The notes under the pieces are model-generated. The model was not told where the DNA came from. It did no database searches and was given only the letters and a program-made list of their open reading frames with translations. The position numbers were made by a program, and so were the translations under genes. Positions 4,211-45,329 of a stretch of DNA of 64,000 nt are shown here, piece after piece. Every line of letters begins with the position of its first letter. Within the stretch, counting starts at the first letter, position 1. The stretch is from Macrostomum lignano. Taxonomy: Eukaryota. The DNA lies in contig NIVC01001361.1 of NCBI GenBank assembly GCA_002269645.1, positions 62,001 through 126,000 of the forward strand. The letters are read 5' to 3'.

Positions 4211-4847
4211 TCCTTTCCAGAGAGCACCATAGCTGCTGGCGACACTGGGGGACCTCCCTGGGCGGCGCCAACCCTTCGTCCATAGCGACGCGCCGGCCGT
4301 TCAGAGATTAGCGGAATAGGTGTTCGCACCTTCCCGCTGTGTCCCTTCCCAAACAGCCCTGCTCAAGTCAAGTCAAGTTCTTGTTCAAATCCCGAACTTC
4401 GGCAAAGCATTCTCGCCCCCGACAGCATCAGTTCGACTCCACCAGCAACTACAGCGACGCCAGTGTTTACGCCGCCTTGAACTGCCCGGATTGTCATCTA
4501 GTATACATGCGTATATTCCCTCCCTTGCCAATAACATTGATTGATGCCGAGGCAGATGCGGCCAAATTACTTTTGAAAAATCATTAGACATTTAGTTAAT
4601 CTGCATGTCTAAAGTCATGTTGCGAGAGTATTCGTACAGTGCTGTGCTGCGGATGTACGAGAGAAGTTAAGGTTCAAATAATGTATAATTAGCTACATTT
4701 ATAACAAATCTACAAGCCCTATAACTAATATTGTGCCCTATAACTAAATTACGAACAGCTCAGAGATAGCGTGCGTCACTGTGCGGCAGGTACATCGCCA
4801 TGGATTTTTATACGGCGGGGGACAAAGCAAAGAATTTTACATGTACG

Positions 4848-5800
4848 GGCAGGCACTCATTTTGGCGCCGCAGGCACTCATTTTTGCGCCACAGAAACTC
4901 ATTTTGGCGCCACAGAAACTCATTTTGGCGCCACAGAAACTCATTTTAGCGCCGCAGGCACTCATTTTAGCGCCGTAAACACTCATTTTAGCGCCGCAGG
5001 CACTCATTTTAGCGCCGCAGACACTCATTTTAGCGCCACAGGCACTCATTTTGGCGCCGCAGGCACTCATTTTGGCGCCGCAGGCACTCATTTTAGAGCC
5101 GCAGACACTCATTTTAGCGCCGCAGGCACTCATTTTAGCGCCACATGCACTCATTTTAGCGCCATAGGCACTCATTTTAGCGCCACAGGCACTCATTTTA
5201 GCGCCAAAGGCACTCATTTTAGCGCCGCAGGCACTCATTTTAGCGCCGCAGACACTCATTTTAGCGCCACAGGCACTCATTTTGGCGCCGCAGGCACTCA
5301 TTTTGGCGCCGCAGGCACTCATTTTAGCGCCGCAGACACTCATTTTAGCGCCGCAGGCACTCATTTTAGCGCCACATGCACTCATTTTAGCGCCACATGC
5401 ACTCATTTTAGCGCCACAGGCACTCATTTTAGCGCCACAGGCACTCATTTTAGCGCCGCAGGCACTCATTTTAGAGTCGCAGGCACTCATTTTAGCGCCG
5501 CAGGCACTCATTTTAGAGCCGCAGGCACTCATTTTAGAGCCGCAGGCACTCATTTTAGAGCCGCAGGCACTCATTTTAGAGCCGCAGGCATTCATTTTAC
5601 AGCCGCAGGCACTCATTTTAGCGCCGCAGGCACTCATTTTAGCGCCGCAGGCACTCATTTTAGCGCCACAGGCACTCATTTTAGAGCCACAGGCACTCAT
5701 TTTAGCGCCGCAAGCACTCATTTTAGCGCCGCAGGCACTCATTTTAGCGCCGCAGGCACTCATTTTAGCGCCACAGGTACTCATTTTAGCGCCGCAAGCA
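4848..5800. repeat. 21-bp minisatellite (GCAGGCACTCATTTTAGCGCC)n, left part of an array split by the Polinton
   Basis: About 45 direct tandem units. The long ORFs here are translations of the repeat. Confidence 0.97.
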
Positions 5801-6466
5801 ACTACTAAGGGATTCCGAATGGCTCGATTTTGCGAAGGTCCGTCGGGCTGATGTCGGCCTCTAGCACCGCGGCAAGGTGCTCCCTCGGGGTGTACCACCT
5901 CCCCCGGGGTGTACCTCCAGCGGGGTGGGTGTCCAGCGAGTGTACCTCCAGCGGGGTGGGCCTCCCGCGAGTGTACATCCGGCCGGCTGGGCGTCCAGCG
6001 AGTGTACCTTCAGCGCATGGGCCTCCCTCGGGGTGTACATCCGGCGGGGGGATTCCCGCCCCTCCCACCAATGTCGTGTGCACGCGGTTAGTGTAGGAAG
6101 GAAACCCCCGATGCTGACGCAGCCCTGTACACTGAGCAACCGGCCCCCATGCGGGGGACAGAGAGCAGCCCTGTAGCTGGGGACAGAGAGCAGCCCCTGT
6201 AGCAGGAGGGGTAGTGCGTGGAGAGCCGCCATCCCCCTGTAGCAGGGGACAGATAACAGGCGACCCCTGTAGCAGTATGAGGTGGGGTACAAAGAGACAC
6301 GGGGTGCTGGGACAGAGAGTGCGTGGAGGCACCCTGCGCTGCCCTGGCATGTCGCAGCACGCGGCGTGGACAGAGAGGGAGTATGAATCACACCCCCCGC
6401 GGAGAGAGCGGCCCAGTCTGGAGGCGCGGGACAGACCGGGGGTGAGTGATAGAGAGCTCCCCCAGG
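5801..6466 (+). repeat. Left terminal inverted repeat
   Basis: 5801-6393 is the near-exact reverse complement of 15764-16357 (differences seen: one C-run length and a few substitutions). A further imperfect block 6428-6466 matches 15689-15726. Confidence 0.95.
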
Positions 6467-6557
6467 GCAGTAGAGGACTTGAAAAGAAAAAACACGTATT
6501 TTAGTTGTTTCAGGTTCAGGCCATCCGGCAAACAGAGCAAAGCTCTCCAACAGTGTT

Positions 6558-7187
6558 TTATTTAGCATAAACTACGGGGTAGCGCCCCAACACATTAGCA
6601 TAGTAGCGAACAGATGCGTTCTGCAAGCAATTAACAATCAAGTAGGAGTAGGGCTCCCTAGTGGCGTCTTCGTACATTTGAACAAAACTTTTTGGGTTAG
6701 CGGGGACAAGCTGCTTTGCAATATGGGCGACTGTACTAACGTCCCGTACATTGCGGAACAATACAAGGTAGTTTGCGTTAAGGGATTGAGTGCGGTGCTC
6801 CTTGCCCTTGGCAAACAGGTTTTGTACAAGGTACCAAAGCCGGAATCCCACATGGCTGACTTTGCGAGTGAAAAATGCGGTAAAAGCAGCGTTTTTTTCC
6901 ATGGCTTGCATTTGATCATCGACAACGAGTAGAATATTCGGAGCGGGAACATAGGTTTCAGGGTTAAATGTAGACGAGCGAAAATTGACAGGGTACGGTA
7001 ATTCAAACAGTTCCGGGTCTGGATAGTGCCCAAACCAATCAACGCGAACAGGCTTAGGGTCCTGAAAAAACTCGTTTCGCAGCAATTCTTTAACAAGAGT
7101 TGTTTTTCCGCTCTGGTTAACACCAGCAAAAATCGCCGAAGTATTTGGAGCAAACTTTAGAGCGTCAGGATCAATTGTTTGGTACAT
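6558..7187 (-). CDS. A32/FtsK-like genome-packaging ATPase
   Basis: Walker A GVNQSGKT, Walker B LLVVDD, then FTRKVSH..LVQNLF..RTQSLNANYLVLF..RD typical of Polinton ATPases. First ATG is at 7187 (the 7211 start is TTG). Confidence 0.92.
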   Translation of the reverse strand: MYQTIDPDALKFAPNTSAIFAGVNQSGKTTLVKELLRNEFFQDPKPVRVDWFGHYPDPELFELPYPVNFRSSTFNPETYVPAPNILLVVDDQMQAMEKNAAFTAFFTRKVSHVGFRLWYLVQNLFAKGKEHRTQSLNANYLVLFRNVRDVSTVAHIAKQLVPANPKSFVQMYEDATREPYSYLIVNCLQNASVRYYANVLGRYPVVYAK

Positions 7188-7221
7188 TTTCAGGGCGAGT
7201 TGACACTCCAAATATTAAAAA

Positions 7222-7658
7222 CTATTTTATTTGTAGAACATGTTTTCGAACCATCAAATCATTTTCAAGCAGATTGGTAGAGTAACATTCCCTTAAAATC
7301 TTTTCAATCGACAACCCCTCTAAAAAGTGCTTTTCGGCCACAAAAATCACATGCGGCCCACACGCTACACTTAGAGGGTGTTGAACAGGGTGGCGATTCA
7401 TAGCAACAGGTGAATGTACATGCATCGAGATCCAAGCCGAGAGCAATTCCGGCACGGGTTCAATACACAGGGGTCAAAAAATGTCACACTCTTATCATCG
7501 TGTAGGCAAATCAGTCCCCAGTGGGTGCCTGGCAGATTACCCGTGTCAAAATTAATTACATATGCAGCAGGGTAAACAGGTGCAGGAATTCTGTCGAGAG
7601 GGCAAACGTGCACTTCCACAGGTAGTTTTAAACGCTCCAAAATTTCCAACGTGTTCAT
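7222..7658 (-). CDS. Adenain-like cysteine protease, split by a 1-nt frameshift (~7467); ~145 aa when repaired
   Basis: GTHW (His) and FFD (Asp) are in ORF 7398-7658; QHPLSVACG (Gln/Cys) is in ORF 7222-7455. Restoring one G gives the continuous FFDPCGIEPVPELL. Confidence 0.88.
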
Positions 7659-8936
7659 ACGTAGTCCAGAATGGGCTGGCGGCCTCTAGTGATTTGCACG
7701 CGTTGTCAAAGTAACCAAACACCAAAACGTTAATCCCGGCAGGTAGGGCTGCAGAAAACTTTATCTGTAGGGTCAGATTCCCTCTCTCGCGAGGCATGCT
7801 ATGTCCACCCAGTTCCATGTCGGGCATTAGATTCCACGCAAATAAGCAGTAACCGGCGCGATAATCCGAATATGACAGGTCAATGTCCAAATCGCGATTC
7901 ATTTTCCCTAGGCTCTTAAACAGCATGGCGTATTCGCGAGCATAGTTTTGGGCAGCGAACCTTGGAGTGAATGGTTGACCGCACAGACTGACACCGTCCT
8001 TGTACAGGGCCACACTGTCCGCCCCAAATGGCTCGAAATTGAACGGATTATGGGTGGCCACCCCGTTATATGCGGCACTATTGACCATCCCATAATGACA
8101 AGTTTAGGCTTCTGCTCCGGGAAAATATTATTGATTGACACGTCGCGAACTCCTACAGCGACAGAGGTGTTGTGTACAACGAGGCGCTCGATGGGGTAGA
8201 CTGCATTCTGAGTCGCCAGCTGTTCTTCAATCTCCAAGGCCAGTTGGGGGTTAGCCTTTACCCGACGAACGTGTAATTTTGCACTTTGAAGAACCAACTT
8301 TGCATCAACCCCTTCGGCGTGATTCTCTACAACGAATCCCGAATTTTGCAGAGTGAGCGTAACCACCATATCAGTGTAGGGTAGCAGCATACGATCGTTG
8401 GTGACAAAAAAGTCGAGACTAAGAGGGCCATACAGGTGAAATGTTCGAGAACCGGCAGCCATCGCCTTGCGAGTTACAAAGCCAGGATTTCCAACCGCAG
8501 CCATTTGACCCCCAGCGTCTTTAGCGTAGCCCATCATCCGCAGTTGGTTAGACTTTGAATCAGACCCATAACTCAAGCATGTACGAATGTACGCCTTGTA
8601 GGCGTGGTTGTTGTTGCTAGACTCGATATGTGTACCATTTATGGAAAGAGACACGTTTTTGAACATGGTCTCCAAGAGGTAATTGATTGGCGCCACGTTT
8701 GAATCCGCCGCCAAATCGGCTCCATTAGCTCTTTTAATACAACCTTTAATCTCGAGATCAATGTCATTAAGATCGACAAACGTCTCGCCGCCCACAATTC
8801 TAAACTCAACCACACTCGCATTTTCGACGCTGGCAACCGGGTGGATTTCTTCAGTAGTTGAACCTACAGCGGCAATCTGGTGGGCTCGAGGGGCAAAGAG
8901 CTCAAACTCGGACTTTGTACACAGACACTCGGACAT
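7655..8936 (-). CDS. Double-jelly-roll major capsid protein (Polinton PY), two 1-nt frameshifts; ~427 aa when repaired
   Basis: N-terminus ECLCTKSEFELF..HQ..EEIHPV..VEFRI..FVDLNDI and middle HNPFNFEPF..VALYKDG..QP. One G restored at ~8089 gives KLVIMGMVNSAAYNG; one G at ~7700 gives DNAVQITRGRQPILDYV*, whose TGA overlaps the protease ATG. Confidence 0.92.
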
Positions 8937-8965
8937 GTTTAGTAGACAGACTCGATTCGGCGAAT

Positions 8966-9310
8966 CTAATTGAAGCGGGGCTTTTTATTTATAGTGCTGA
9001 AAATGTCTGAATTGAGACGCTTCGGAGCCTTTTTTCTTCTTCGTCCGCTACCCCTTTGGGTAACCGTGTCTTTAAAGGCGTCCTTGGCAGCCTGAACAGA
9101 ATTGCGCAGGACAGACTCCTTCAAATTGCCTCCTTGCTCGAGGCTATCGTTAACAGTAGTTGCTAGGGCTCTAGTACCATGACGGAGAACGTTTTTACCA
9201 AAACTCTTTAGAATTGGCAGCGCGAAGCGGGCAATGCTTCCAAACAAACCGTTGCCCCTCTGGGCGCCCGCGAAAACAGGCAAAGCTCCACCAATCAGAA
9301 TAGAAGGCAT
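8966..9310 (-). CDS. Basic core-like virion protein with adenain-type cleavage sites
   Basis: FAGAQRGNGLFGSIARFALPILKSFGK amphipathic segment, QRGSGRRRKK basic tail. This is a conserved Polinton ORF type located between penton and capsid. Confidence 0.75.
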   Translation of the reverse strand: MPSILIGGALPVFAGAQRGNGLFGSIARFALPILKSFGKNVLRHGTRALATTVNDSLEQGGNLKESVLRNSVQAAKDAFKDTVTQRGSGRRRKKAPKRLNSDIFSTINKKPRFN

Positions 9311-9353
9311 GATTAAGCACTAGGATATAGTTTACTGAGGCTGTGCTGTTTAT

Positions 9354-10484
9354 TTATAGCTTCTTTTCGCGGATGTTAACGCTCAAGACGGTCTTGCCCC
9401 TCATTACTTTTGTCATATCCCTGCCCATATCATCGTTAATTTGTACTTCAATAGTTTTGAATGGGTGCTTAACCAGCGGTAGATATGCCGGATTGACAAA
9501 CTCGTAGTACTCGCGACCGCCCTGAACTTTGGGATCCATCGGTATAGCTCCCAACAGAGGAACTTTAACGTCTCCTACAATAACAGAATCGACTATGCTC
9601 GAATAGATGTACATTGTTTGTATTCCACCGGTTAATTCCATTGATGCGTTTGCGTAGAAATCCGATATACCGAAAAATGGGGTTGTATAATCATGCTCTG
9701 GGAAACCAAGCACGCTGGTCAAGCGCCCCAACCCAAACATGTAATCCACCGAGCCGATGTAATAACACCTATTCGTAACTTCGCTGTATCCGAAAAAGTC
9801 CTTTCTAGGTGCTGGAGCCGCTATGAGATCTTTGATCCGTTTCCAAATTAAATCGTTGAGTTCCTCCACCAATCTTTTAGGTGTACTATAGTATCCACCC
9901 TGCATAAAATAGATTTGATCAGACGCTGCGCTAGTAACTTGTCTTATTATTGGAGCGTGGTCCATTGACTGTACAGTCGGTTCCTCAACAACTGCGGTGA
10001 TGGAGGCTGCACACCCCGCGTGTAATACGAGTTCAGTAGGTAGATCCTCATTAGACTCGAAGCCGGCGACTAGTTTAAACACCTTGGGTAGGGCATCCGG
10101 GAATTTGATGCCGACGGTGGATTTTGAAGTATTCACAATCATAAAGGCGGTTGGGGATGTTCTTAAAAAGACAATTTTCTTATTATCCCCTTCAACGTAT
10201 CGGATACCGTTTAGAAAGCCGGAAATACATTCTTCAGGGGTTTTCAGACCCGCTGCGAGACAAAGGCTTGCAAACGACGAAGCCGTCAAGAGGCCCTCCT
10301 GTTCGCGAATGGTGATCGGTATAGATTTTTTGAAAGATTCAAATTCTTTGGTAAAGTAGATCCGTTCGAGGCAAACCTCATGATTCGGAAAGTGGAGAGT
10401 GTCCGGTAAATTAATAAAATAATGAGCCGGATTATTTTCGGGATAGTGCTCGGGGCACGCATTGCTAGGCAGAAAGAGATGCAT
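9354..10484 (-). CDS. Minor capsid (penton, single jelly-roll) protein
   Basis: LFLPSN..YPENNP..F..LP..L...EVCLERIYF N-terminus; MYIYSSIVDSVIVGDVKVPLL..EFVNPAYLPL..F.TIEVQINDDMGR C-terminus. Confidence 0.85.
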   Translation of the reverse strand: MHLFLPSNACPEHYPENNPAHYFINLPDTLHFPNHEVCLERIYFTKEFESFKKSIPITIREQEGLLTASSFASLCLAAGLKTPEECISGFLNGIRYVEGDNKKIVFLRTSPTAFMIVNTSKSTVGIKFPDALPKVFKLVAGFESNEDLPTELVLHAGCAASITAVVEEPTVQSMDHAPIIRQVTSAASDQIYFMQGGYYSTPKRLVEELNDLIWKRIKDLIAAPAPRKDFFGYSEVTNRCYYIGSVDYMFGLGRLTSVLGFPEHDYTTPFFGISDFYANASMELTGGIQTMYIYSSIVDSVIVGDVKVPLLGAIPMDPKVQGGREYYEFVNPAYLPLVKHPFKTIEVQINDDMGRDMTKVMRGKTVLSVNIREKKL

Positions 10485-10496
10485 GGTAGCCACGCA

Positions 10497-11575
10497 TTAG
10501 TTATTATTACGTTGACGTATATTTATAACTTCATTTACAGGTACAAATGAATTAAAAGTGTCGGGATAACCGCGCCAGCTAACGTAATGGTGCGCAACAC
10601 CATTTATTAACACGTTTCTACGCAAAACTTTATTGATTACAAAACGCTCGGGTCGGGTAGATTTGGACAGTTCATTGTAGTAAAACCGTCCCTCAATCAC
10701 TTCACCAGACAAATCAGAAATACGATAAAAATGTGGGGGTCCAGGGCAAACTTTGGATATAATGTACACCTCCTCACTATACATGTCGTATGCCTCCTTG
10801 TCGAATGCCCTGCGAGATTTCGAAATTCTCACAAAATCCCCCTTTTTATATACGGGGTCGTCTTTTTGCTGATCCGGGTAGAGCTTTTCCCACACACGCT
10901 TCTGATTGTGGAACCCTACACTTGACGGTTTCATCTCAATAGTAGAATGCGTCGTGTTGTTGTAATTGCCTACAAATTAGGTAAGTAGTCAACCCAACGC
11001 CACGTGTTGTTGTGCTCAAAGTAGCGAGCCAGACGCTTTCGAAGAGTTCTAATCAGCCTCTCGGCCATGTTTGCCTTGTACACAGAGTTGGTGCTGTACA
11101 TTTTAACATTATTGTCTTTTAGTATGCGGCGCATTCGCTGATTATAAAACTCGGTACCCCGATCCACGTGAAGGTAAAGGGGGCGGGCAGGGAAATCATT
11201 CGCCAACATTGACTCAAACGCTGCGGGGGTATCACTCTTTAGTTTAATTGCCCTACAAAAAGCCTGCTTACTAAGCACATCAATAATAACTAGTATATAT
11301 TTATGTCCGTCATTCCAACGTTTGTATCGCGACATGTCCATCAAATCGGCTTGTAGAGTTTCCATGAATCCTCCCGACATTACTTTTCCCGTTTTAAATG
11401 TCCTGTTGACTCTCCGGTGACGGGTGTAACTCGGTTGGGTTTCTAGCCATTCCCTGGTTTGGCGTCTTGTCAGGTTTGGCGCCAGACGTTTGGCCTCCTG
11501 ATAGACACGGGCAGCATTTGAAAAAGCGGCGGCTCCTTGTTCGTAAACTCGACGAAGAGCGGTTAGAGCCCTCAT
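10497..11575 (-). CDS. rve (DDE) integrase with C-terminal chromodomain, one 1-nt frameshift (~10975); ~359 aa when repaired
   Basis: QADL..IDVLSK..VDRGTEF..AERLIRTL (D,D,E). Restoring one T gives NFVGNYNNTTHSTIEMKP. Ends with the chromodomain-like HYVSWRGYPDTFNSFVP. Confidence 0.92.
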
Positions 11576-11672
11576 TGACAACAAGTGTGGATGCACAGCA
11601 TGAATAGTTGCACGTAATGTCGGCTGGGGAGTTGTCTACACAAAGCTTTGACGCGGCTGCTGCTGCGCCCAT
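11572..11672 (-). CDS. Putative 33-aa Cys-rich microprotein (needs one restored A)
   Basis: ATG lies 37 nt downstream of TATAAATA. Restoring AA>AAA gives MGAAAAASKLCVDNSPADITCNYSCCASTLVVK* with an ATGA overlap into the integrase. Confidence 0.3.
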
Positions 11673-11707
11673 GACCGCCGGCGCGCGGTTATGTTTGGAC
11701 TAGGGTT

Positions 11708-12334
11708 CTATTTATAAAGAGTCACGTATTTTTTCTTTTTCTCGGGTGGTCTTAGTTGGTAATCGTGATATTTACCCACCCCGGTACCTCGATCGACAAG
11801 TTTGGGCATAGCATTTACACCTTTGTTGCGCGTGGTCGTTAAATCGCGGGTGTCTGTCGCAATTGTGTGCTCATATTCATCGCGGTAATCGTCGGTACCA
11901 ACCATATGGTCAACCTTCTTTTCCTCCACAGGGAGCTGTTTCCGACCGAGCATAGACATTGGTATACGGGCCTTGTCTAGCAGAGCCCAGAAAGCGGTTG
12001 AATATTTCGGGTGATTATTAGTGTTGGTGGTGACGGCTTGTAGAAGATCAAAAACGTTGCTGCCACCCCAAGTTTCACCATCAAAAACGACTTCCCACGA
12101 TTGGTTGTAATTTAGGCTGGGGTGCTTTTCTGTTAGTATATTCCATATACGTTGTTGCCTATCAGAAAATAGCTGCTTTGTCGTCTTTTGGGGTTTTACT
12201 TTAGCCAATTGGGTCTGTAGCTTTGCATTGTACTCTACAAGTTTTTCGTACTCCGATTTTGGGGCAATTTCTCGCGGAGTACCCTGTCTAAGCTGATTGA
12301 ATTCCTCCTCGGGGACCACAACGTACTTGTCCAT
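11708..12334 (-). CDS. Conserved Polinton-type hypothetical protein
   Basis: YNQSWEVVFDGETWGGSNVFDLL motif resembles the WN..GE.V..G..I.GSNI.DL ORF common in Polintons. Tightly packed in the gene string. Confidence 0.65.
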   Translation of the reverse strand: MDKYVVVPEEEFNQLRQGTPREIAPKSEYEKLVEYNAKLQTQLAKVKPQKTTKQLFSDRQQRIWNILTEKHPSLNYNQSWEVVFDGETWGGSNVFDLLQAVTTNTNNHPKYSTAFWALLDKARIPMSMLGRKQLPVEEKKVDHMVGTDDYRDEYEHTIATDTRDLTTTRNKGVNAMPKLVDRGTGVGKYHDYQLRPPEKKKKYVTLYK

Positions 12335-12336
12335 TT

Positions 12337-12726
12337 TCAACGTCGTTGTCCTAGCAGACCACCAAACAGTCCAGTGATTAACGGTGCAGCAATCTTGGCG
12401 AGAATTGGTAGGAATCCTCCAACTTGAGGGTCCGATAGTATCATATTCTTCTTCCTATTTATAGACAGTTTTTTGTCGGCCATGTCATGCAGGGCTTCTC
12501 TATAACGTTTCAACCTTGCAAACTGTCTAGGGGATAGATCGATATTGCCCTTGAGTACATTGTGGCTTAACTCGCACAGACACTGCATCAACTCATTATC
12601 GGCTCCCCTAATAATGGCCCTCCTTCGATGTGGTCGCGCGTCACCGAGCTCCTCTAGCTCGCGACGGCAAGAACAAAGACGAGAAATTCCGTTTGTCATT
12701 ATTAAGGTGGTAAGCATTGCGTGCAT
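12337..12726 (-). CDS. Adenovirus pX-like precursor with C-terminal amphipathic peptide
   Basis: ELMQCLCELSHNVLKGNIDLS..L.RYRE.L..MA..K and QVGG|FLPILAKIAAPLITGLFGGLLG, similar to the adenoviral pX GGILPLLIPLIAAAIG. Confidence 0.75.
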   Translation of the reverse strand: MHAMLTTLIMTNGISRLCSCRRELEELGDARPHRRRAIIRGADNELMQCLCELSHNVLKGNIDLSPRQFARLKRYREALHDMADKKLSINRKKNMILSDPQVGGFLPILAKIAAPLITGLFGGLLGQRR

Positions 12727-12764
12727 ACATGTGCATATTTTGTTTATTTATAAGCAAAGCATAA

Positions 12765-13283
12765 TTAGAGTTGCAGAATAGCAGTCACGTGGTCGTACAT
12801 TTTACACAGTTCGTCATAGTTTCGTATTCCTAGGAACACTAACCGACCATTCTTTCCGCACAGCAGGCACTTGGCCTTGCGGAATGGGGACTTTATTACA
12901 AGCCCATTGAATACCTCACTCTCCCACTCAACCCAGCGCGAGCTCGAGTTGGCAAGGCGGAAAAAGTTTGGCTTAACATTAACTTCTGCACGATAAGTAC
13001 CGGTAGTGATAACAACAGAGTTTGGTTTACATTGAGCAAAAAGACGCAGCACATCGTTGGTTGATTGGCAACCAAAAACAATGGCAGATAATGAACGTTT
13101 GAAAAAGTTTATTGTACACTTTCCGATCCTCAGGTTGTACAATGCCCGGGGTCTATGAAACGTTCTAGCGCGCGCCCAGTCCAAGTTCGGTAGGTGGTTC
13201 CACCTTGCGCAAAACACCCTGTTTACGCACACGACGTTCTGCAAGCGGTTTTTTCGGTTGCTTTTGTTTCCGCTCAGCTCCAC
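12765..13283 (-). CDS. TATA-binding-protein (TBP/TRF)-like protein
   Basis: Two TBP repeats: LQNVVCV...INFFKRSLSAIVFGCQSTND and WESEVFNGLVIK...LCGKNGRLVFLGIRNYDELCKMYDHVTAIL (cf. TBP [65 protein letters not shown]). No ATG; the start shown is GTG. Confidence 0.75.
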   Translation of the reverse strand: MELSGNKSNRKNRLQNVVCVNRVFCARWNHLPNLDWARARTFHRPRALYNLRIGKCTINFFKRSLSAIVFGCQSTNDVLRLFAQCKPNSVVITTGTYRAEVNVKPNFFRLANSSSRWVEWESEVFNGLVIKSPFRKAKCLLCGKNGRLVFLGIRNYDELCKMYDHVTAILQL

Positions 13284-13845
13284 CAGCTCCGCGCTTGCGT
13301 CCTACCTTGATTTTTAACGGTGGAATCCAGTAGCAGCGGTCAAACGCCTGCTTGGGAGCTTCTATGAATTGCAGTTGTTGAATTTTCGGCACCGCGGTTA
13401 GAACCGAGTCGTGAATCACCGCCGTGTCTAGGGCGAACAGTACTCTATAGTAGCCCGTCTTGTTCTTGTAGTCGGTGCACAACTTGCCGCTCTTGTCGTA
13501 CATTTTAAAGTCGTGAGCCAATCCGAATGCAGCGCTGTCGCAGCCAAAAGTGGGGTTGTACCCCAATAGCGCCATTCCTTGGATAGAGAGCTGGTGACAC
13601 ACGGAATTGAACGCTTCTGGTATGCAGCTCTCCAAGTGCTTTTGGGAAAGAATGATGAATTCGCGGCCTTCATTGTCGGTTCTCACACCCTTGACAATCA
13701 GTACGGGCGTCGCATTGGCAAGATAGAGAGGGCCCTGTTCGTCGTACTCAATGTCGTACGTCTCGGTTCCGTTGTAGCTTGGACCTCTCGACTTGAGAGA
13801 GAATAGGTCGATCCTAACACTATTGTAGTCTTGAACGGTATCCAT
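13165..13845 (-). CDS. Putative OB-fold ssDNA-binding protein (T7 gp2.5/NCLDV DUF2738-like) with basic tail
   Basis: IEY..PLYLANATPVLIVKGV..G.EF..LS and KMYDKSG..KTGYYRVLFALD..I..VLTAVPKIQQLQFIE resemble that family's pattern. ATG at 13845 lies 44 nt downstream of TATATAAG. Confidence 0.45.
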   Translation of the reverse strand: MDTVQDYNSVRIDLFSLKSRGPSYNGTETYDIEYDEQGPLYLANATPVLIVKGVRTDNEGREFIILSQKHLESCIPEAFNSVCHQLSIQGMALLGYNPTFGCDSAAFGLAHDFKMYDKSGKLCTDYKNKTGYYRVLFALDTAVIHDSVLTAVPKIQQLQFIEAPKQAFDRCYWIPPLKIKVGRKRGAGGAERKQKQPKKPLAERRVRKQGVLRKVEPPTELGLGAR

Positions 13846-13933
13846 GTTGCTGCTGCTGCTGAGAGTGGGTCTCGCTCCTGAGCGCCTCCTTATATACCCT
13901 TGGCGCGGAGGGTGGGGTGGCTGGGCGTTTTTG

Positions 13934-14449
13934 TTATAGTCCTTCTTTAACGACACTTTCCGGTGTTGGAAATCCGGAAAAAATAAACCTTTTGTTTCGA
14001 TCTTCTGGTCGAGGGGTTTGAGGCGTGTCGTGAATGCAGCTGCAGTGAGGGTTGATAGTCAACTTCGCTAGCACTGGTCTACTGTGTTTAGGTCGCCAAA
14101 TCCTTTGGTGTTCCGTCCACGAGGGAGCAATCGGCTGGTGATTCCGGTACCGTATTTTCTCACGATGATCCTCTTGTAATATTGGGGCAATTATCTGCTC
14201 CATTCTTTGAAGATTGGCTTTGAAATGCATCTTGTCTCTAAAGTAGTAGTCAATTCGGGCATCTGTATATTCTTGGGTGCTGTAAGGCCCTTGCCCAATT
14301 TCGTCTACCTCGACATTAAAGGTGACTAATCGTTCGGGAATTGGTTTGCCGTGACAAATGCATAACCAGTCTGTGGACTTTTTCAGGGTCTCGTACTCTG
14401 CCCTTTCTTTGCTCGATAAAAGCGGGTAGTCTCGAGAAATCCAGCTCAT
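13934..14449 (-). CDS. Hypothetical protein, 171 aa, with CxCH and HCxCxH motifs
   Basis: ATG overlaps the upstream stop (ATGA). Intact ORF within the packed gene string. Confidence 0.7.
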   Translation of the reverse strand: MSWISRDYPLLSSKERAEYETLKKSTDWLCICHGKPIPERLVTFNVEVDEIGQGPYSTQEYTDARIDYYFRDKMHFKANLQRMEQIIAPILQEDHREKIRYRNHQPIAPSWTEHQRIWRPKHSRPVLAKLTINPHCSCIHDTPQTPRPEDRNKRFIFSGFPTPESVVKEGL

Positions 14450-14799
14450 TCCTCTGACTCGTCAGATTCGTCGAGAAAGAAATAGTGGAAGAAATTGTCG
14501 ACTCTATTCTTTTCAACTGCACAAAGTATTTTGTCTGACAGGTGAAATTCGCAGTCTCCTTTTACGTACAGGCGCTTCCCGTCGATAACTTTGATAGATG
14601 CGCCGCCTCCGAGATCGTAATCTGTGCAGCTAGTGCCCAGAAATTTCATTCGATGCCATTGTGCTCGACTAAACACGGCTCCTGGACAGCTACAGTTTTG
14701 ACAGTGGATGCGGAAACGCGGCTTGTTTGGGTCCCAATATCCCACTTCCAGCACTGCGTTGTCAACGTGGGTGTACACTATTTCCGATTGCCAGTACAT
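14446..14799 (-). CDS. Hypothetical protein, ~117 aa, weak PC4-like signature, acidic tail
   Basis: ATG at 14799 lies 32 nt downstream of TATAAATA. GAVFSRAQWHRMK resembles PC4 GISLNPEQWSQLK. Ends DESDESEE. Confidence 0.6.
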   Translation of the reverse strand: MYWQSEIVYTHVDNAVLEVGYWDPNKPRFRIHCQNCSCPGAVFSRAQWHRMKFLGTSCTDYDLGGGASIKVIDGKRLYVKGDCEFHLSDKILCAVEKNRVDNFFHYFFLDESDESEE

Positions 14800-14833
14800 T
14801 TCGATATTGTTGAGAAATACCAATTTTATTTAT

Positions 14834-15613
14834 TTATAGGCTGCCGTCTGAACAGATTTCCAACCATTCCCTCCACTGTAGAACGGTTCTCTCAATTGAT
14901 AAAAGTAAATACGCCGCTAGGAGCCCCCGGTTGCTGCTGCGCGCTTCGTAAAGACAGTTGAGATATGTGTCTCTATTTGCATACGCAAATGATACGGGTT
15001 CTGGCAGAATCCGGTTGATCAACTTTGATAATAACAACCTAGCAGTTCTACCATTGCCGTCGCTAAAGGGGTGTATGGTGAGAAACTTTTCTAGGAAATA
15101 TGCTCCTGTCACTACTGCATCACGCAAGATTTGTGGCTCTTTTATGTCTCTAGTTAATTTTACCAGCTGCCGTTCAATATTTTCTGGGGCACTGTAATAC
15201 ATACTCGCGCCTGCTGGCTTGGCGTGCTTAATTCTATACGATCCTGCATTCGGGAGCAGTCCTCTACACACGCGTGTGTGAACTTGTCTAACAAACTCTG
15301 TGTCAATTAACCCCCTCGTGTCATTGAGGTGTTTTGCCGCACTCCATAGATTGGCTGTGACCATACAGGACCCGGTTTTTATCGCTTCTTCTGCTTCCTC
15401 CCAAGTCAACGCCACCTCTCTCTCCTCAATGTTTACTTCAGTTACGAATGCCAGCCGGGCTAGATACGTGAATTCTAAGCGCTCCTTTGCGGTCAATCCC
15501 TCGATTCTTTTCCTAGTGTCTGATAACAATCTTTCAATGAGGGGTAATCTGGCGCGCACGCTCTCGTTGCTGAAATAGGGGTTATCAGTTATACCCTCTT
15601 CCATGTTCTCCAT
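14834..15613 (-). CDS. Fic-domain protein (AMPylase-like), FICD-type architecture
   Basis: Canonical HPFSDGNGRTAR motif. Upstream VTEVNIEE..LTWEEAEEAIKTG aligns with the FICD inhibitory helix TVAIEGNTLTLSEI; VRQVHTRV..AGSYR is also present. Confidence 0.9.
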   Translation of the reverse strand: MENMEEGITDNPYFSNESVRARLPLIERLLSDTRKRIEGLTAKERLEFTYLARLAFVTEVNIEEREVALTWEEAEEAIKTGSCMVTANLWSAAKHLNDTRGLIDTEFVRQVHTRVCRGLLPNAGSYRIKHAKPAGASMYYSAPENIERQLVKLTRDIKEPQILRDAVVTGAYFLEKFLTIHPFSDGNGRTARLLLSKLINRILPEPVSFAYANRDTYLNCLYEARSSNRGLLAAYLLLSIERTVLQWREWLEICSDGSL

Positions 15614-15688
15614 ACAGAGGGTTTTGTACACTGCTTCTATTTATGGTTGCATTAACACGTTGCTCGCGGCCTGTCTGTCCCTCTGCAG

Positions 15689-16357
15689 CCTGGGGGGCTC
15701 TCTATCACTCACCGCCGGTCTGTCCCTCTACCACCCCGGCCTGGGGAAGCTCTCTGTCCCTCCGTGTGACTCACACTCCCTCTCTGTCCACGCCGCGTGC
15801 TGCGACATGCCGGGGCAGCGCAGGGTGCCTCCACGCACTCTCTGTCCCAGCACCCCGTGTCTCTTTGTACCCCACCTCATACTGCTACAGGGGTCGCCTG
15901 TTATCTGTCCCCTGCTACAGGGGGATGGCGGCTCTCCACGCACTACCCCTCCTGCTACAGGGGCTGCTCTCTGTCCCCAGCTACAGGGCTGCTCTCTGTC
16001 CCCCGCATGGGGGGCCGGTTGCTCAGTGTACAGGGCTGCGTCAGCATCGGGGGTTTCCTTCCTACACTAACCGCGTGCACACGACATTGGTGGGAGGGGC
16101 GGGAATCCCCCCGCCGGATGTACACCCCGAGGGAGGCCCATGCGCTGAAGGTACACTCGCTGGACGCCCAGCCGGCCGGATGTACACTCGCGGGAGGCCC
16201 ACCCCGCTGGAGGTACACTCGCTGGACACCCACCCCGCTGGAGGTACACCCCGGGGGAGGTGGTACACCCCGAGGGAGCACCTTGCCGCGGTGCTAGAGG
16301 CCGACATCAGCCCGACGGACCTTCGCAAAATCGAGCCATTCGGAATCCCTTAGTAGT
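15689..16357 (-). repeat. Right terminal inverted repeat
   Basis: Reverse complement of 5801-6466. Confidence 0.95.
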
Positions 16358-16998
16358 CAAGCACTCATTTTAGCGCCGCAGACACTCATTTTAGCGCCGC
16401 AGGCACTCATTTTAGCGCCGCAGGCACTCATTTTAGCGCCGCAGACACTCATTTTAGCGCCACAGGCACTCATTTTGGCGCCACAGGCACTCATTTTAGC
16501 GCCGCAGGCACTCATTTTAGAGTCGCAGGCACTCATTTTAGCGCCACAGGCACTCATTTTAGCGCCGCAGACACTCATTTTAGAGCCGCAGGCACTCATT
16601 TTAGAGCCGCAGGCACTCATTTAAGAGCCGCAGGCATTCATTTTACAGCCGCAGGCACTCGTTTTAGAGCCGCAGGCACTCATTTTAGAGCCGCAGGCAC
16701 TCATTTTAGCGCCGCAGACACTCATTTTAGCGCCACAGGCACTCATTTTGGCGCCACAGGCACTCATTTTAGCGCCGCAAGCACTCATTTTAGCGCCGCA
16801 AGCACTCATTTTAGCGCCGCAGGCACTTATTTTAGCGCCGCAGGCACTTATTTTAGCGCCGCAGGCACTTATTTTAGCGCCACAGGCACTCATTTTAGCG
16901 CCACAGGCACTCATTTTAGAGCCGCAGGCACTCATTTTAGCGCCACAGGCACTCATTTTAGAGCCGCAGGCACTCATTTTAGAGCCGCAGGCACTCAT
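16358..16998. repeat. 21-bp minisatellite, right part of the split array, same orientation as 4848-5800
   Basis: The repeat resumes in register after the TSD: CAAGCA|CTCATTTTAGCGCC. Confidence 0.97.
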
Positions 16999-18317
16999 CT
17001 TGGCGACTACATGTACAGGCAGAATTCACTTTGTTGCCGGAGGTGCTATATTTTGGCGCCCAGAAACAAAATTATTGATTTCCACAACTGGTTACAAGGT
17101 GGGGTGGGGCCGGACAAAGCATTGGCATGTCGAAAATTATTGCCCCAAATTATACATGTTAGGGTTACATTCTTTAATTTTAAATCTACTTAAATAACCT
17201 ACTGGTATGTCAACCGAGGTAAATGTACATTCACATGTACAGTTGCAAATGCTAAATAATCTATCGCAGATAAAGTAAATTTAGGCAACGTATTTAGTCA
17301 TACCGGTATTGTACCATATATAGTCTAGACGAAATTTATTTAAGCAATTTTTATTGAAAGTTACACCGCTCAATTAAATTTTTCTTAGCTCGATAGCATT
17401 TATAATCAATAAATTAGCAATTAGAATAGCAAAATAATGAAAGCAGGGGCAAAATCAAATTTGCTAGAATCAACACAAGAAAAAGAAATTTTACTGACAA
17501 TCCGAAAGCAACAAGTCAGTTTGCAATCCAATAGTCGATCTGTGTCTAATTAAAAATATGGTATTTGATAAATATTATTCCATTCCATGTAGTGATTTAC
17601 CAACTAGGATAACAAAGAATAAAAGTCGTACGGCCAGACTGCGATGGGATGTAAATTGTGGCCACAGAAAATCATTAAGACTAAAAGTACGAAGCACATT
17701 TTATGAAAGGTTTTTAACAAAGAACTGATCAATCACGGTCAGCAACCAGATCAGTCAGAATGAATAACATAATTTATACCACCTTAATTAAAACTATAAA
17801 GATGCCATGCGGAAAGTTTTATAGCAAACAAGAATGGCAGAACGTATCGCCTTAAAACTACGCGTATATTGTAACAAATGATATATGCTCGTATTATTGA
17901 TTGGCGAGAATGGCGCAAACTGCATTCTATATATATATTTATGTTTGCGCATTGGATGCATATTCAGGCCGTTTGAGCTCTCAAAACTGCCGTTAGCGCG
18001 CGTGTGACCAGACACTGGCCGACGGGCCAACTAACAAATCATTGATGGTCACAATAATAATAATAGTAATAAAGATAGAAATAATAAAGAAATAAGAAAA
18101 TAAAGATTGAACGCGCGATTACGGACCAATGGCCAGCCAAAATGAGCCAATGTCTAAGCTGTCCAGTGCTTGCAGGGCCGAGACTGAACAGCGCTGATCG
18201 GGTGGAATGGGCGATGCGAGAGCTGGGGCAAGCAAAAATAATTGTCATATCCTCAACTATCACAATGAAACTCGGGAAAGGGGGTCTGGACGGCGGGCGG
18301 AGGCGGTTCAGCGCTTA

Positions 18318-37665: not shown

Positions 37666-39759
37666 TCAGCCAGTCGTGGCGTTGCCATTCGTAGCCCCAG
37701 CAGATGTTTGGTTGCAGCAGTTGCAATCTGGCGGCTTCATCTGCACAAGCAGGAAAAAATAGGTCAGAAATAGACCAGCAAGCTGAAATGAATGAGTCGG
37801 GAAAGAAGCAATTATTTGCATGGCAACTACCATAGTGCTCCACTCACCATTGGGATCAGCCATCATTTAATTAATTTGATTGCTTCTACCTATACATGTA
37901 GGTCTGCCAACTACAGATTACTTGCTCAAACATGCGTTTCTTAAGCACACTGAGTGCAGTTAATACGGGACTGTCTGTTTGTTCATAAGGACGTTTTACA
38001 CTCGCTGGAGTCTACGCTCGTAGACCATTTCGATTCTCGACCCACTCGGAACAATTTGTGTCCTTGAGCAAGGCACTTAACTCAGCATTGCTTCAGTTCA
38101 CCCAGCTGTAAAATGGGTGCCAGCATTAGCTGTAGGGTAATTGATGGTGTGTGTGGCGACCCCCCAGTCCTTGGATGGACTAAACAGCCGTAGCTGCGAG
38201 GCTGAGCTGTCGGCTGCACATCTGCCCTAGAGCAGCTATAAAAATCAATTATTAAATTATTAAATCACGAGATCAAAAGGCTACTCACTTCTAGAACCAA
38301 AGATTTCTTGATTACGAATAAGGAGAAGCAGGTCAGGCCATTGTCTTCCGAGGATAAAATGTTTACGAACTGGACGAGCTGCAAGATCGGAGTTTAGTAA
38401 CACGGTAGAATTGCGGTGTTAAATGCTTCACATTAGGCACTGATAAAAAGATCGTACTTCTTGTGGCTCTTGCACAACCGTGAGCCTCTGGATATTTTGC
38501 TTCGGTCTCTTTGTCTGAAAATGTAGGTTTGGTTTGGTGGCTTTTAATAAATGCCCGAAATTCAATTTTGAGACCAAAACAAAACAAAGAACAGAACAAA
38601 AAATAGCAAGCTTTGATTGCTGAGTTAGACTTGCCAGATCGCTGATGTACCCGGCCACTGCCACCGGAACGAACAGGAACGCGAATCCCATGGCCACCCA
38701 GAACAGCATGATGAACAGGAACAGAGTCTCCTGTCGCGACTCAGGAAACTGGATTAGATAGTACAGCAGCAGGATCGGACAGGTAAGGCCGAACATGAAG
38801 GTGGCAGACAGGTACTTGCTGACTAGACCGTCAGCAGCTTTCAGCAGGTCCAGTAGGTTTACAAAGTGTCGCCTGCAGACTCGAACCTGCTTGCCAGAAA
38901 CTTCGCCTACACCAGACGAGTCAGCCTGGGCGAGCTGCTTGTCCAGAACGATGTCATAGGCGCTGAAGACGGAGGCGACGATCGCCGCTATGATGAGGAA
39001 GATCAGCATTGAGTAGATCCACACACAGGTCTTCACTACCAGCAGCAGTGAGATGCCGACTCGCCAGAAAATGTAACGCCACTCAATCTGGTAGACTGGC
39101 GCCAGGGCTTCCTCCGGCTCCAGCAAGCGCAGACTGTATTCGAACGGATTCCGGCGCGGCAGCAGCAGAATGAGCACGGCTGAGAACACAGAGTTCGCCA
39201 GCACGCCGGCGGTGCCACCCCAGAACAAGAGACGGTGCCGACGGCAGCTTTTCTCCCAGTGCTTGTCAACGCAGTTGCCGGGCGCGCCCCAGTCTTTGAG
39301 GCTTGTCAGCGCGTTGTCGACCAATTTAAAGAAATCGACAAAGCGACCAACGCAGCTTAAGTACACTAATATGGACTGCGAAAAGCTGCAGTAAAGATAA
39401 AAAGTGATCAGCGTTGTCGAGAGCATCGCCCTGGCGTCAAGTTCCCGCGACATCCTTAGCTGCTGAATACTGATTGCGGCTGCCTCAACGAACGCCAACA
39501 AGCTTAAGACTGCGGCAACGGTGGTGACCAGGCGCCGCCGCCAGCCGGTCAGCAGGCCGGGTAGCAAGCCGATCCAAGAGAAAAAGGTAAAGTAGGGCCG
39601 GAGGAGGTTGCAAGCGCTGAGATCGGGGTCAGCGACGGCTTCGGTAGAGGAAGGTCGTTTTGCTGACTTGGGTTGGACGGAGTCGTCGTTAGTAGTATCA
39701 GCGGGATCGATGCGGATGCTTTTGATTTTACTGTCTCTCTCTAAATGAAGGCGAGACAT
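37666..39759 (-). CDS. Gustatory-receptor-like 7TM chemoreceptor, ~462 aa (exons 39759-38635, 38514-38458, 38378-38289, 37782-37666)
   Basis: Multiple TM helices; C-terminal GLTCFSLFVIKKSLVLE-LAGLFLTYFFLLVQM matches the GR-family TYxxxxxQ motif. All introns are phase 0; intron 1 is GC-AG (CTG|GCAAGT). Confidence 0.8.
38025..38250 (+). mobile_element. 5'-truncated tRNA-derived SINE in a GRL intron
   Basis: TTCGATTC B-box, then TGTGTCCTTGAGCAAGGCACTTAAC..CACCCAGCTGTAAAATG; shared with 48540-48800. Confidence 0.75.
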
Positions 39760-42914: not shown

Positions 42915-44321
42915 TCATTCGACCTTGGCCGACTTCTTCTTTGACATGCTCAACTGCTCCTTTTGCTGCTTCCGATCTCGGCTTCGCATGTAGAGCCAAA
43001 GACCGGAGGACAGCAGGTGCAGGCCCTGAGCAAGGCCAGTCAGCCAGCTTGGCGGCTGCCGGCTGTGCAGGGCGACGCACAGAGTAGTCACAACGATGCA
43101 GCGCATCAGCTCGATGGTGGCGGCCGAGCGGGGGAAGCCGTCAATCAGGCGGCCGATGGAGTACAGGGTGAGGAGGATCAGCGCACAGCTGACAGCCACG
43201 GCCGGCACAGACAGGCTCTGCCGGTTGCTAGCCAGGTAGATGTAGACAACGTGGATAGCGAAGAAGTGCAGGGTGGCGTAGGCAGTCACCCAGATGGGCA
43301 CCTGGGGATTGTGATACTGCACCGGGTTTTCGATTTCCGAGAAATCGTCAGTGCCGAGCCGAGGCGTCCCTGGCTGCCAGCCGGGTCCGTAGAAGAAGGC
43401 GCGGAATCTGTCCGTCCAGTTGCTGTGCTGGCGCCACAGGCCGAGCACGTATTTCAGATGGAACAACTGCAGCTCTATGGGGTCGAAGGTGTTCACCGGA
43501 TGGATGAGGCCGTACACAGGCGGCTCGTCGTCCTTCTCAGCCTGAAAAGTGCCAAAAATCCGGTCAAACAGAATGAAAGTGCCGCCATAGTTCTTGTCAA
43601 TACAGTAGGCATTGCGTCCGTGGTGGACTCGGTGATGCGACGGCGTGTTCATCACGTACTCGATGGGCGCAGGCAGCTTCTTGATCACTTCGGTATGGAT
43701 CCAGAACTGGTACAGCAGGTTGAACTGGATGTGCACGGCAAACAGAGATGGCGGCAGCACCAGAGCCAGTGGTAGGTAGGTAAACCAGCTAAAGTAACGC
43801 TGTAGCACGGATTGGCGCAGCGCAGTGGTGAGGTTGTACCGCTCCGAGCTGTGATGCATCTGGTGGCCAGACCAGAACAAGTTCACCTCGTGCGCGGTTC
43901 TGTGCACCCAGTAGTAGCAGAAGTCCACCCCGATCAAGGCGGCCAGCCAAGCCCAGGCCGAGTCCCAGGGTACTTCAGCAATGCGCCAGTGATCGTACAC
44001 CCAGATGTAGCTGGACACCTCAATGCTGCGCGCCAACAGCAGTGGCAGCTGGGAGATCAAGCCGCCGCTGACTGAGCCAATGCTGTCGTTAAGAGGAATG
44101 GCCTTTCTGCGGCCCTTGCACACCAGGATTATATATTCGATAAAGATGAGCAGCAGAAAGTACGGGATGGCTTCGTCAACAAATTTGGGTACTTTGTCCA
44201 CCTCCGGAGCGCTGGACTCCCACGGCGTCACCAGGTAGAGCATTCTGCGTAGGCCAGTCAGCGGGTCCACCAGGTGCGGCCTCGTCACCTCCTCTGTGAC
44301 GTTGCTCATGTTGCTAGCCAT
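42915..44321 (-). CDS. AGMO: Alkylglycerol monooxygenase (fatty-acid hydroxylase family), intronless, 468 aa
   Basis: His boxes YYWVHRTAHEVNLFWSGHQMHHSSE, WIHTE and TPSHHRVHHGRN..CIDKNYGG..FDRIFGTF. Confidence 0.93.
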   Translation of the reverse strand: MASNMSNVTEEVTRPHLVDPLTGLRRMLYLVTPWESSAPEVDKVPKFVDEAIPYFLLLIFIEYIILVCKGRRKAIPLNDSIGSVSGGLISQLPLLLARSIEVSSYIWVYDHWRIAEVPWDSAWAWLAALIGVDFCYYWVHRTAHEVNLFWSGHQMHHSSERYNLTTALRQSVLQRYFSWFTYLPLALVLPPSLFAVHIQFNLLYQFWIHTEVIKKLPAPIEYVMNTPSHHRVHHGRNAYCIDKNYGGTFILFDRIFGTFQAEKDDEPPVYGLIHPVNTFDPIELQLFHLKYVLGLWRQHSNWTDRFRAFFYGPGWQPGTPRLGTDDFSEIENPVQYHNPQVPIWVTAYATLHFFAIHVVYIYLASNRQSLSVPAVAVSCALILLTLYSIGRLIDGFPRSAATIELMRCIVVTTLCVALHSRQPPSWLTGLAQGLHLLSSGLWLYMRSRDRKQQKEQLSMSKKKSAKVE

Positions 44322-45329
44322 GCTCAGCTAGTGGAGGAGTGACATTCAGCGATTCCGAGTAATACAGCAAAGAGATCTGCTTGAGCCTGAGGGCGAAGCA
44401 AAATATAGCCAGTCGGATCGCAGTCTGTGCGTACAATATGCCGCACACTCTGCCAGCGCTCAGTGACAGCTCATCACTAGGTGAATCTCTTAACTCTAAT
44501 CTTGGGGCAACTTGGCATAGAGACGAGGCGTACAATGAGAAGGCCTGTACACTCGTCTGACCACACCTATATAATGAACTTTGGCTAGGCATGTGACCAC
44601 TGACACTTGCAATTCCCTCCATTCGACCGCAAAGTACGTTTTGGCTTCTACGAGTATGTAACAGGCGGTGGCACGTCGAGCCACGTTTTAGCGATAACGG
44701 GTTCTCATTTGCCCTGTTTTTCTTTTATACATAAATCTCAGCAAAACTAAAGCAATACTTGCAGTTTTCCAGCATTCTTGGTCTAATGTTCTGCACGGAC
44801 TACTTAAACTAGGGATGGGAAACTGGCCAAATCATGCAGACAATAGTTGGAGGCTGGTTTTTTCTAGCGCTCCCTAGAATTTTAGTGAACGTAGAAAGCT
44901 GTTTTTTTGCCATCCTGAACAGAATTTATTCCTCTATAAGATGCACAACTTATTTTTTGTCGAGCTTCATTTTGAGAGTAGCAGTGAGATTTTTTGTACA
45001 GTACTCCTTTTTCACAGTGTTTTTATAGAGAATGCCTTATAAAAATCTGTAGTCAGACGGATTTTTGTCTATGGTATAAAACGCATCATCACTATACATG
45101 TAACACTTGTGTATCAATTGAGCATGCAACGAAGGCTTTGCTTTAGTCTGTCTGATGACTGATAGAGCCTGATACATGTATATGAATGAAGAGTTTAGCT
45201 AAAGTCGAAAAACTCTAGCAAGCCAACTTTTTTCGAGCCAAGCTCACGAGGCCCCCGTCGGGTAGAAAATTAACACAGAGCTACCCGGATGTAGCGAGGC
45301 TGCGGTAGCTGCTAGAGCGCAATGAGAAC

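Follow-up and report, generated by a model that had tools for sequence, protein, structure and literature searches.

A TBP-like reading frame on the minus strand of a Polinton in the flatworm Macrostomum lignano is under purifying selection and probably forms the second exon of a protein whose first exon would encode a predicted single-stranded-DNA-binding (SSB) domain. Our preferred reading, to which we give a probability of roughly 40%, is that this divergent TBP-fold domain is spliced onto the SSB domain and acts as a switch for the late genes of the element.

The window, meaning the whole 64,000-nucleotide stretch of an M. lignano contig that was analyzed, contains a family A element of 10,557 bp at 5801-16357, with minus as the gene strand throughout. 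The sequence-only reading had placed a TBP-like gene inside a Polinton, and the surroundings agree: the element has terminal inverted repeats of ∼680 bp, a 6-bp duplication of the 5- to 6-bp type, an rve integrase, a packaging ATPase, and protease-like and capsid-like genes, all hallmarks of Polintons. The gene order is Fic, two unnamed open reading frames (ORFs), a 226-amino-acid (aa) ORF, the TBP-like frame, two more unnamed ORFs, integrase, the minor and then the major capsid-like gene, the protease-like gene, and ATPase. The integrase was named by Pfam, and the ATPase and capsid genes by homology to a polymerase-bearing family, family C; the capsid names are positional and come without a Pfam hit. 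A PHROGs search matched 0 of 8 proteins. The features of the element are the following.

5795 to 5800, plus strand: left copy of the target-site duplication CAAGCA (6 bp); the right copy is at 16358-16363.
5801 to 16357, no strand: whole element, Polinton family A, without a protein-primed DNA polymerase.
5801 to 6476, no strand: left terminal inverted repeat, starting ACTACT.
6558 to 7187, minus strand: packaging-type ATPase with a P-loop; homologue in family C (E value, 1e-21).
7222 to 7685, minus strand: protease-like gene, in two frames in the window copy; the like-placed family C gene matches Peptidase_C5.
7552 to 8936, minus strand: major capsid protein-like gene, in two frames in the window copy; no Pfam hit, named by position and by what we take to be the usual Polinton gene order.
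9354 to 10484, minus strand: gene of 376 aa, no Pfam hit, presumably minor capsid-like.
10497 to 11575, minus strand: rve integrase with a chromo-like end, in two frames in the window copy; named by Pfam.
11708 to 12726, minus strand: two unnamed ORFs of 208 and 129 aa, conserved in family B.
12765 to 13238, minus strand: TBP-like coding part, predicted exon 2; 157 codons and a stop, two TBP repeats, short helix 2.
13239 to 13305, minus strand: predicted phase 0 intron of 67 nucleotides (nt), GTAGGA...CTTGCAG; unspliced, it would encode the basic SSB tail.
13306 to 13845, minus strand: predicted exon 1, 180 aa; gp2.5/CP312R-type OB-fold ssDNA-binding domain by predicted structure.
13165 to 13845, minus strand: unspliced ORF of 226 aa, the SSB domain plus a Lys/Arg-rich tail, overlapping the TBP frame.
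13934 to 14799, minus strand: two unnamed ORFs of 171 and 117 aa, upstream of the SSB.
14834 to 15613, minus strand: Fic-domain gene, 259 aa (PF02661; E value, 6.8e-14).
15680 to 16357, no strand: right terminal inverted repeat, ending AGTAGT.

The Fic gene is intact, carries an HPFxDGNGR motif, and lies at the end of the family A element; the family B match ends before it. The 117-aa ORF was considered as a PC4 homologue and not accepted (8 of 26 identities to the family C PC4; E value, 0.069; no atlas match). The element sits within a 21-bp host tandem array (4837-5800 and 16358-17000), and the copies in C807 and C633 also seem to lie in repeat-like flanks. Outside the element, host-like ORFs were named by eye as membrane receptor-like (38428-39759) and fatty-acid hydroxylase-like (42915-44321), together with decayed retroelement pieces (45244-47393) and a dihydrolipoamide succinyltransferase-like exon (61405-61749).

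The TBP-like frame runs from stop to stop at 12765-13301 on the minus strand (178 aa) and has no ATG until its last 11 codons. Both halves of a TBP saddle are recognizable, as had been claimed from the sequence: the four peptides quoted at the time all fall in this single frame, and its likeness to TBP is above chance. Pfam PF00352 matches repeat 2 only, with an E value of 9.5e-5 and 22.6 bits against a cutoff of 22.9; the relatives P0008 and P0007 score 24.6 bits (which passes) and 18.1 bits, and the TBP-like protein of family B gave no PF00352 match. In a PDB sequence search, TBPs accounted for 18 of the 19 matches at E values of ≤10 (best, 0.0034). An AlphaFold2 model built on 4 sequences reached a pLDDT of 60 and is poor at residues 79 to 114 and in repeat 2, leaving the saddle geometry unclear; with this model, Foldseek returned solely TBP-containing entries among the matches listed to rank 44. 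Residues 1 to 88, which make up repeat 1, had yeast TBP as their top VIA match (Z score of 6.5, which is middling and below 8; root mean square deviation [rmsd] of 2.7 over 87 aligned residues). In the ESM Atlas, TBP appeared in 28 of 30 matches at 0.94, a recognition below the Atlas threshold. The predicted two-repeat saddle is thus seen in repeat 2 by Pfam and PDB sequence, in repeat 1 by VIA, and over the full length by Foldseek; each line of evidence is moderate, and together they appear to cover both repeats. The likeness of the N terminus to TRF2 fared less well, with an hhalign E value of 0.27 to the host TRF2 versus 0.002 to repeat 2 of the host TBP, both from a low-depth profile, and no useful profile alignment to the host TRF2 was obtained that would support a TRF2/TBP chimera.

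The genome holds at least 47 DNA matches and at least 92 protein matches, with DNA identities of 94 to 100% in family A and 73 to 75% in family B. Family B is ∼27% diverged from family A, and the position of the TBP gene is fixed in both. Nine of 10 family A copies examined are colinear with the window element over most of their own length, and the tenth is partial. A broken frame in other copies had been named in the sequence-only reading as a sign against a gene; among 92 matches, the frame is open over 158 residues in 21 family A places and over 157 in about 20 family B places. Between families A and B, the 157 codons show a dN of 0.14 and a dS of 1.96, near saturation at synonymous sites, and the resulting dN/dS of 0.073 is alike in both repeats; the other two frames give 1.2 and 2.3. 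The TBP-like frame is under purifying selection. Relatives at 56 to 65% identity are present in ENA, Logan, and JGI records, and no related locus was found in viral contigs or JGI metagenomes; P0005 and P0006 were discarded as repeat-rich chance hits. The Pfam score just below the cutoff and the missing start codon are what one would expect of a decayed host TBP fragment or of a functionless chance likeness, but the dN/dS value, the relatives, and the fixed gene position in two families largely refute that explanation, and we give it almost no weight.

Residues are numbered here in the 158-aa frame from Q1; repeat 2 was aligned by hhalign, and repeat 1 by hand against the host TBP, with MAFFT misaligning repeat 1 across families. 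In TBP, two pairs of phenylalanines intercalate into DNA and acidic residues contact TFIIB, and helix 2 is a surface for TFIIA, TAF1, Mot1, and Brf1. The window frame keeps N2, R38, F47, E107, E109, F111, G113, V135, and G138, and it is changed at two of the four Phe places (R32; C128/G129), at the central-strand Thr/Asn places (F56, T80, and L137), and at the Pro after F111 (N112). Of the two sets of contacts that the sequence-only reading had singled out, the TFIIB-facing E107 and E109 are kept, and the intercalating phenylalanines are reduced to two of four (F47 and F111, by hand mapping). One of four central polar residues is kept, likewise by hand mapping, and with so few of these phenylalanines and polar residues remaining, TATA-type binding may be lost. 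The acidic stirrup is constant: E107 and E109 are invariant in 11 of 11 alignment rows, and all 6 of the close relatives compared share E107, E109, and F111. Helix 2 is ∼7 residues in the model (61 to 67) versus ∼19 in canonical TBP, with 88 residues aligning over yeast residues 63 to 167, so the long basic helix 2 of canonical TBP does not appear in the model. A predicted complex with TFIIB, for which the TFIIB chain was one exon only, scored 0.01, a value that speaks neither for nor against an interaction.

These features raise a second reading of the protein, namely that it has ceased to read TATA DNA and is a decoy that titrates host TFIIB or another TBP partner and damps host transcription or defense, much as the dominant-negative role suggested at the outset. 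An invariant stirrup combined with a DNA-reading face that is changed over much of its extent would suit a decoy. However, wherever a relative covers the changed DNA-face residues it has them in the same form, and constraint is equal in the two repeats, so we consider a decoy improbable; the promoter evidence bearing on it is given below.

The gene directly upstream supplies the predicted partner. Residues 1 to 165 of the upstream ORF were modeled with a pLDDT of 78.7 in the best of five AlphaFold models, the others reaching 32 to 44. In a structure comparison, this domain matched African swine fever virus (ASFV) CP312R (Z score, 10.5; rmsd, 3.8; 157 aligned), T7 gp2.5 (8.6), and the Enc34 SSB (7.6), followed by a phage DUF2815 protein at 7.2 and then by an unrelated entry at 4.7. 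Foldseek returned the same SSB set, and BFVD gave 105 viral matches at E values of ≤0.001, with giant-virus and iridovirus proteins on top. The upstream domain is thus predicted to be a gp2.5/CP312R-type ssDNA-binding protein. Translation without splicing likely yields 226 aa, an SSB ending in a basic tail, and translation after splicing likely yields an SSB-TBP fusion of 337 aa.

Splicing of the two frames is probable on the evidence of the DNA. The upstream frame reads K-I-K to 13306, GTAGGA follows, and CTTGCAG ends 67 nt on at 13239, after which the TBP frame resumes with N-V-V-C; removal of 13305-13239 keeps the reading frame (phase 0, GT..AG). Both splice sites are present in 26 of 26 family A places and in 28 of 30 family B-type loci examined. 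The spacer is 67 nt in 25 of the 26 family A places and 66 nt in 1, and two of these end in AAG; one decayed copy has the textbook donor GTAAG. In family B the spacer is 195 to 206 nt, its length being 2 modulo 3 in 15 of 28 places, 1 in 10, and 0 in 3; the difference between 196 and 197 nt falls in a run of C's and may in part reflect sequencing error. The length of the spacer and mostly also its frame differ between the families and both sites are kept, which favors splicing. Within the spacer, the DNA similarity of families A and B comes to an end, and family B does not keep the SSB tail in frame. K-V is retained at the donor in two SSB homologues from other sources, P0002 (56%) and P0004 (41%). 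The tails of these homologues, known from protein sequence, can encode, in the +1 frame, the window TBP start at 22 of 29 positions for P0002 and 23 of 31 for P0004, compared with shuffled means of 5.4 and 7.3 and maxima of 13 and 14. The spacer thus has the conserved sites, in-frame joint, and free length of a GT-AG intron. Both sites could also be kept as codons (V-G and L-Q-N), and with six other identical runs of at least 14 nt between families A and B elsewhere in coding parts, identity at the two sites alone is no proof of splicing. The predicted joint was not among the joints listed for eight, out of 24 runs on the list, that consist of assembled contigs, which are RNA only by guess and have 2 joints beyond those listed; some contigs of these runs cross the spacer unspliced, and their near-even cover of the whole element carries no information on expression. 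The genome assembly contains no intronless copy, and a database search found no fused SSB-TBP protein at E values of ≤1 among 349 candidates of 313 to 2,000 aa, a null result of little weight. In one family A copy, G000:C4486, the spacer is 66 nt and a frame of 375 aa stays open through both domains; this is a single locus and may be an assembly error.

Two other ways of producing the TBP domain were weighed against splicing. A programmed ribosomal frameshift could join SSB, tail, and TBP, the frames overlapping with a +1 offset in family A and in P0002/P0004, but family B has a −1 offset in 15 of 28 places and shows no conservation of the overlap sequence, which makes a frameshift very improbable. 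A stand-alone mini-TBP of 159 aa could start from a near-cognate TTG at 13244 by leaky scanning or reinitiation and serve as a late-gene factor without being fused. The TTG stands directly before Q-N in families A and B, gene callers start P0007 at the same place, L-Q-N matches the first strand of the host TBP, no spliced read is among the joints listed for the eight contig runs, and the TBP of family C stands alone. However, from the SSB ATG to the TBP frame there is no promoter box of the two classes described below, which means that ribosomes would first need to get past the SSB ATGs, and a mini-TBP leaves unexplained a conserved donor at the point where A/B similarity ends; we regard it as having a poor chance. 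The suggestion that a virus encodes its own basal transcription factor therefore survives in part: a selected protein of predicted TBP fold is encoded by the element, but it probably does not stand alone, having no start codon and being likely exon 2 of SSB-TBP.

Two classes of candidate promoter boxes accompany these genes, as follows.

13889 to 13896, minus strand: TATATAAG box, candidate early promoter, 51 nt before the SSB ATG; the same box precedes the family B homologue.
12745 to 12752, minus strand: TATAAATA box, right after the TBP stop and overlapping AATAAA; candidate for both the poly(A) signal and the next promoter.
8986 to 8993, minus strand: TATAAATA box before the major capsid gene.
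Beginning at 14838, 12463, 11716, 10527, and 9358, minus strand: other TATAAATA boxes.
7235 (ATPase) and 15645 (Fic), minus strand: TATAAATA variants.

The family A element has seven TATAAATA boxes on the coding strand and none on the other, with 0.14 expected and none of 300 shuffles reaching this number; family B has 7 against 0.18 expected (0 of 200 shuffles). TATAAATA precedes capsid-like, integrase-region, and unnamed genes, and the SSB/TBP unit has TATATAAG in both families. The 117-aa ORF and Fic, which are not particle genes, also carry a TATAAATA-type box. TATAAATA fits the ordinary eukaryotic TATA consensus, so that host TBP could serve those genes and the box alone does not require a viral reader. 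On the decoy explanation, host TBP would drive them, and an ordinary TATA box is what that explanation expects; against it, family C pairs its TBP with a nonstandard box that host TBP would read poorly.

In our preferred reading, a single transcript would begin behind TATATAAG, a box that host TBP would read early. Left unspliced, it would yield the SSB with its basic tail, and spliced, it would yield SSB-TBP. Once bound to the TATAAATA boxes, the TBP part would use the kept acidic stirrup to bring in TFIIB and Pol II of the host, and the shortened helix 2 would drop the contacts to TFIIA, TAF1, and Mot1. The SSB part would keep the fusion attached to genomes whose single strands are displaced, which would link late transcription to replication, and the fusion would turn on the particle and integration genes. 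Binding and activation of promoters by the TBP domain is the part that we slightly favor. Redirection of Pol II to element promoters, one of the two roles first suggested for the protein, is plausible and appears to gain support from the two promoter classes. Coupling to replication is more doubtful. A fuller version, in which regulated splicing of the early transcript gives both SSB and an SSB-TBP that rides displaced strands and hands Pol II to late promoters, one protein doing what takes six in herpesviruses, we rate as unlikely.

Families A and B lack a DNA polymerase B; the family C polymerase probe matches nothing in the window element or in the A and B stretches examined, and both families may be nonautonomous or otherwise replicated relatives of Polintons. 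Polintons, Mavericks, and adintoviruses have 5′-AG...CT-3′ ends, which the ends of families A and B do not fit: they read ACTAC...GTAGT, the reverse of the AGTAGT...ACTACT of family C. Family A has more than 20 near-identical copies despite the missing polymerase. The 20 bases just inside the ends (5807-5826 and 16332-16351) vary from copy to copy in short blocks, yet the two ends match each other in all 5 single copies for which both were read, and the remainder of the repeat is near-identical. At C150, a second family A copy lies head to tail with the first, starting directly after it, and this tandem pair has mixed ends. The end variation suggests end homogenization together with a local diversifying step.

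Of 330 candidates in the genome, 150 were scored in a Pfam search, and among those 150, beside the host TBP and TRF2, most belong to the remote Polinton family C. The family C copies examined carry integrase, capsid, ATPase, polymerase, PC4, and a TBP with its own ATG (E value, 3e-21). Family C has more than 100 genome matches and an exonuclease-like ORF named by eye; between copies, its TBP hardly varies in the first half and is variable in the second. It uses TTAAGAA, also before its TBP (TAAGAA, 9 versus 2.5 expected; 0 of 200 shuffles), and TATATAAG stands before its PC4. No SSB was found in family C (best E value, 1.6). A TBP with its own ATG and a TTAAGAA box, and no SSB, implies that the SSB-TBP fusion is not general.

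Family C also bears on a last alternative, that the window protein is a replication or genome-handling factor acting at ssDNA/dsDNA junctions, loading a helper polymerase or organizing DNA for packaging, with no role in transcription. An SSB as partner would suit such a factor, and families A and B, which have no polymerase and whose ends are reversed relative to family C, need another route of replication. Against this, neither TATATAAG nor TATAAATA occurs inside the inverted repeats, the TFIIB stirrup is kept, and a polymerase and a TBP occur together in family C. We consider this explanation, too, to be improbable.

Several known systems resemble the proposed SSB-TBP in part. The cellular TBP, TRF2, and archaeal TBP (PF00352) share with the window domain the two-repeat saddle, the E-x-E-x-F stirrup, and the N of strand 1; relative to cellular TBP, the window domain has ∼20% identity, a helix 2 of ∼7 rather than ∼19 residues, two Phe and most central polar residues replaced, and no start codon of its own. 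T7 gp2.5, Enc34, ASFV CP312R, and giant-virus SSBs have the same fold as the upstream domain, but the tail here is basic, and that of T7 gp2.5 is acidic. We know of no TBP fusion among gp2.5/CP312R-type SSBs.

Work on viral TBPs of beta- and gammaherpesviruses reportedly concerns TATT late promoters. The sections consulted of a study of KSHV (Kaposi's sarcoma-associated herpesvirus) ORF24 (PMC12529657) treat the roles of the four Phe and of the TFIIB-contacting residues of TBP and indicate that ORF24 needs all four Phe. As described there, the herpesvirus system shares with our model a viral TBP fold, early promoters of host type, a short dedicated late box, and a link to replication, but ORF24 is a large protein that has four Phe, is without the acidic residues for TFIIB, and acts together with five further viral activators (PMC12529657). 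The window TBP domain, in contrast, has 157 aa, with about two of the Phe and the two acidic residues retained; it is probably joined to an SSB, and the box that accompanies it fits the ordinary TATA consensus. None of the element ORFs resembles the partners of an ORF24-type preinitiation complex, and the likeness to herpesviruses is one of analogy. Mirusviruses carry a TBP, according to the sections consulted of PMC10132985, and the ESM Atlas holds a Nucleocytoviricota TBP cluster. Virus-borne TBPs are thus shared with mirusviruses and giant viruses, but those genomes are hundreds of kilobases long and encode their own RNA polymerase subunits, whereas the 10.5-kb element here encodes none.

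Another close parallel comes from Starrett et al. 2021 (PMC8502044), where the legend of Fig. 5 has a TBP label, for MELD viruses with an adintovirus-like PolB; a TBP-like gene would there, as in the window element, lie in a Polinton-type midsize DNA virus. In the sections consulted, it is a label only, within a section on non-animal eukaryote data sets where the carrier virus is not evident (PMC8502044). The main text has no occurrence of "splic," and no promoter class or SSB fusion is mentioned in the parts examined (PMC8502044). Our literature search, which took in a small part of the subscription literature, turned up nothing on TBPs of animal Polintons, on the boxes that go with them, or on a fusion to an SSB. 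Viral mimicry of TBP is itself known; what would be new here is an SSB as the splice partner of a Polinton TBP.

The viral TBP under selection, the two classes of promoter, and the family-specific boxes allow a direct test, in a laboratory flatworm, of whether Polintons are working viruses with an early and a late program. If the splice holds, SSB-TBP would be a domain pairing absent from the literature searched and a minimal model for tying late genes to DNA replication. The rewired DNA face may also provide a natural set of TBP variants for the study of promoter specificity.
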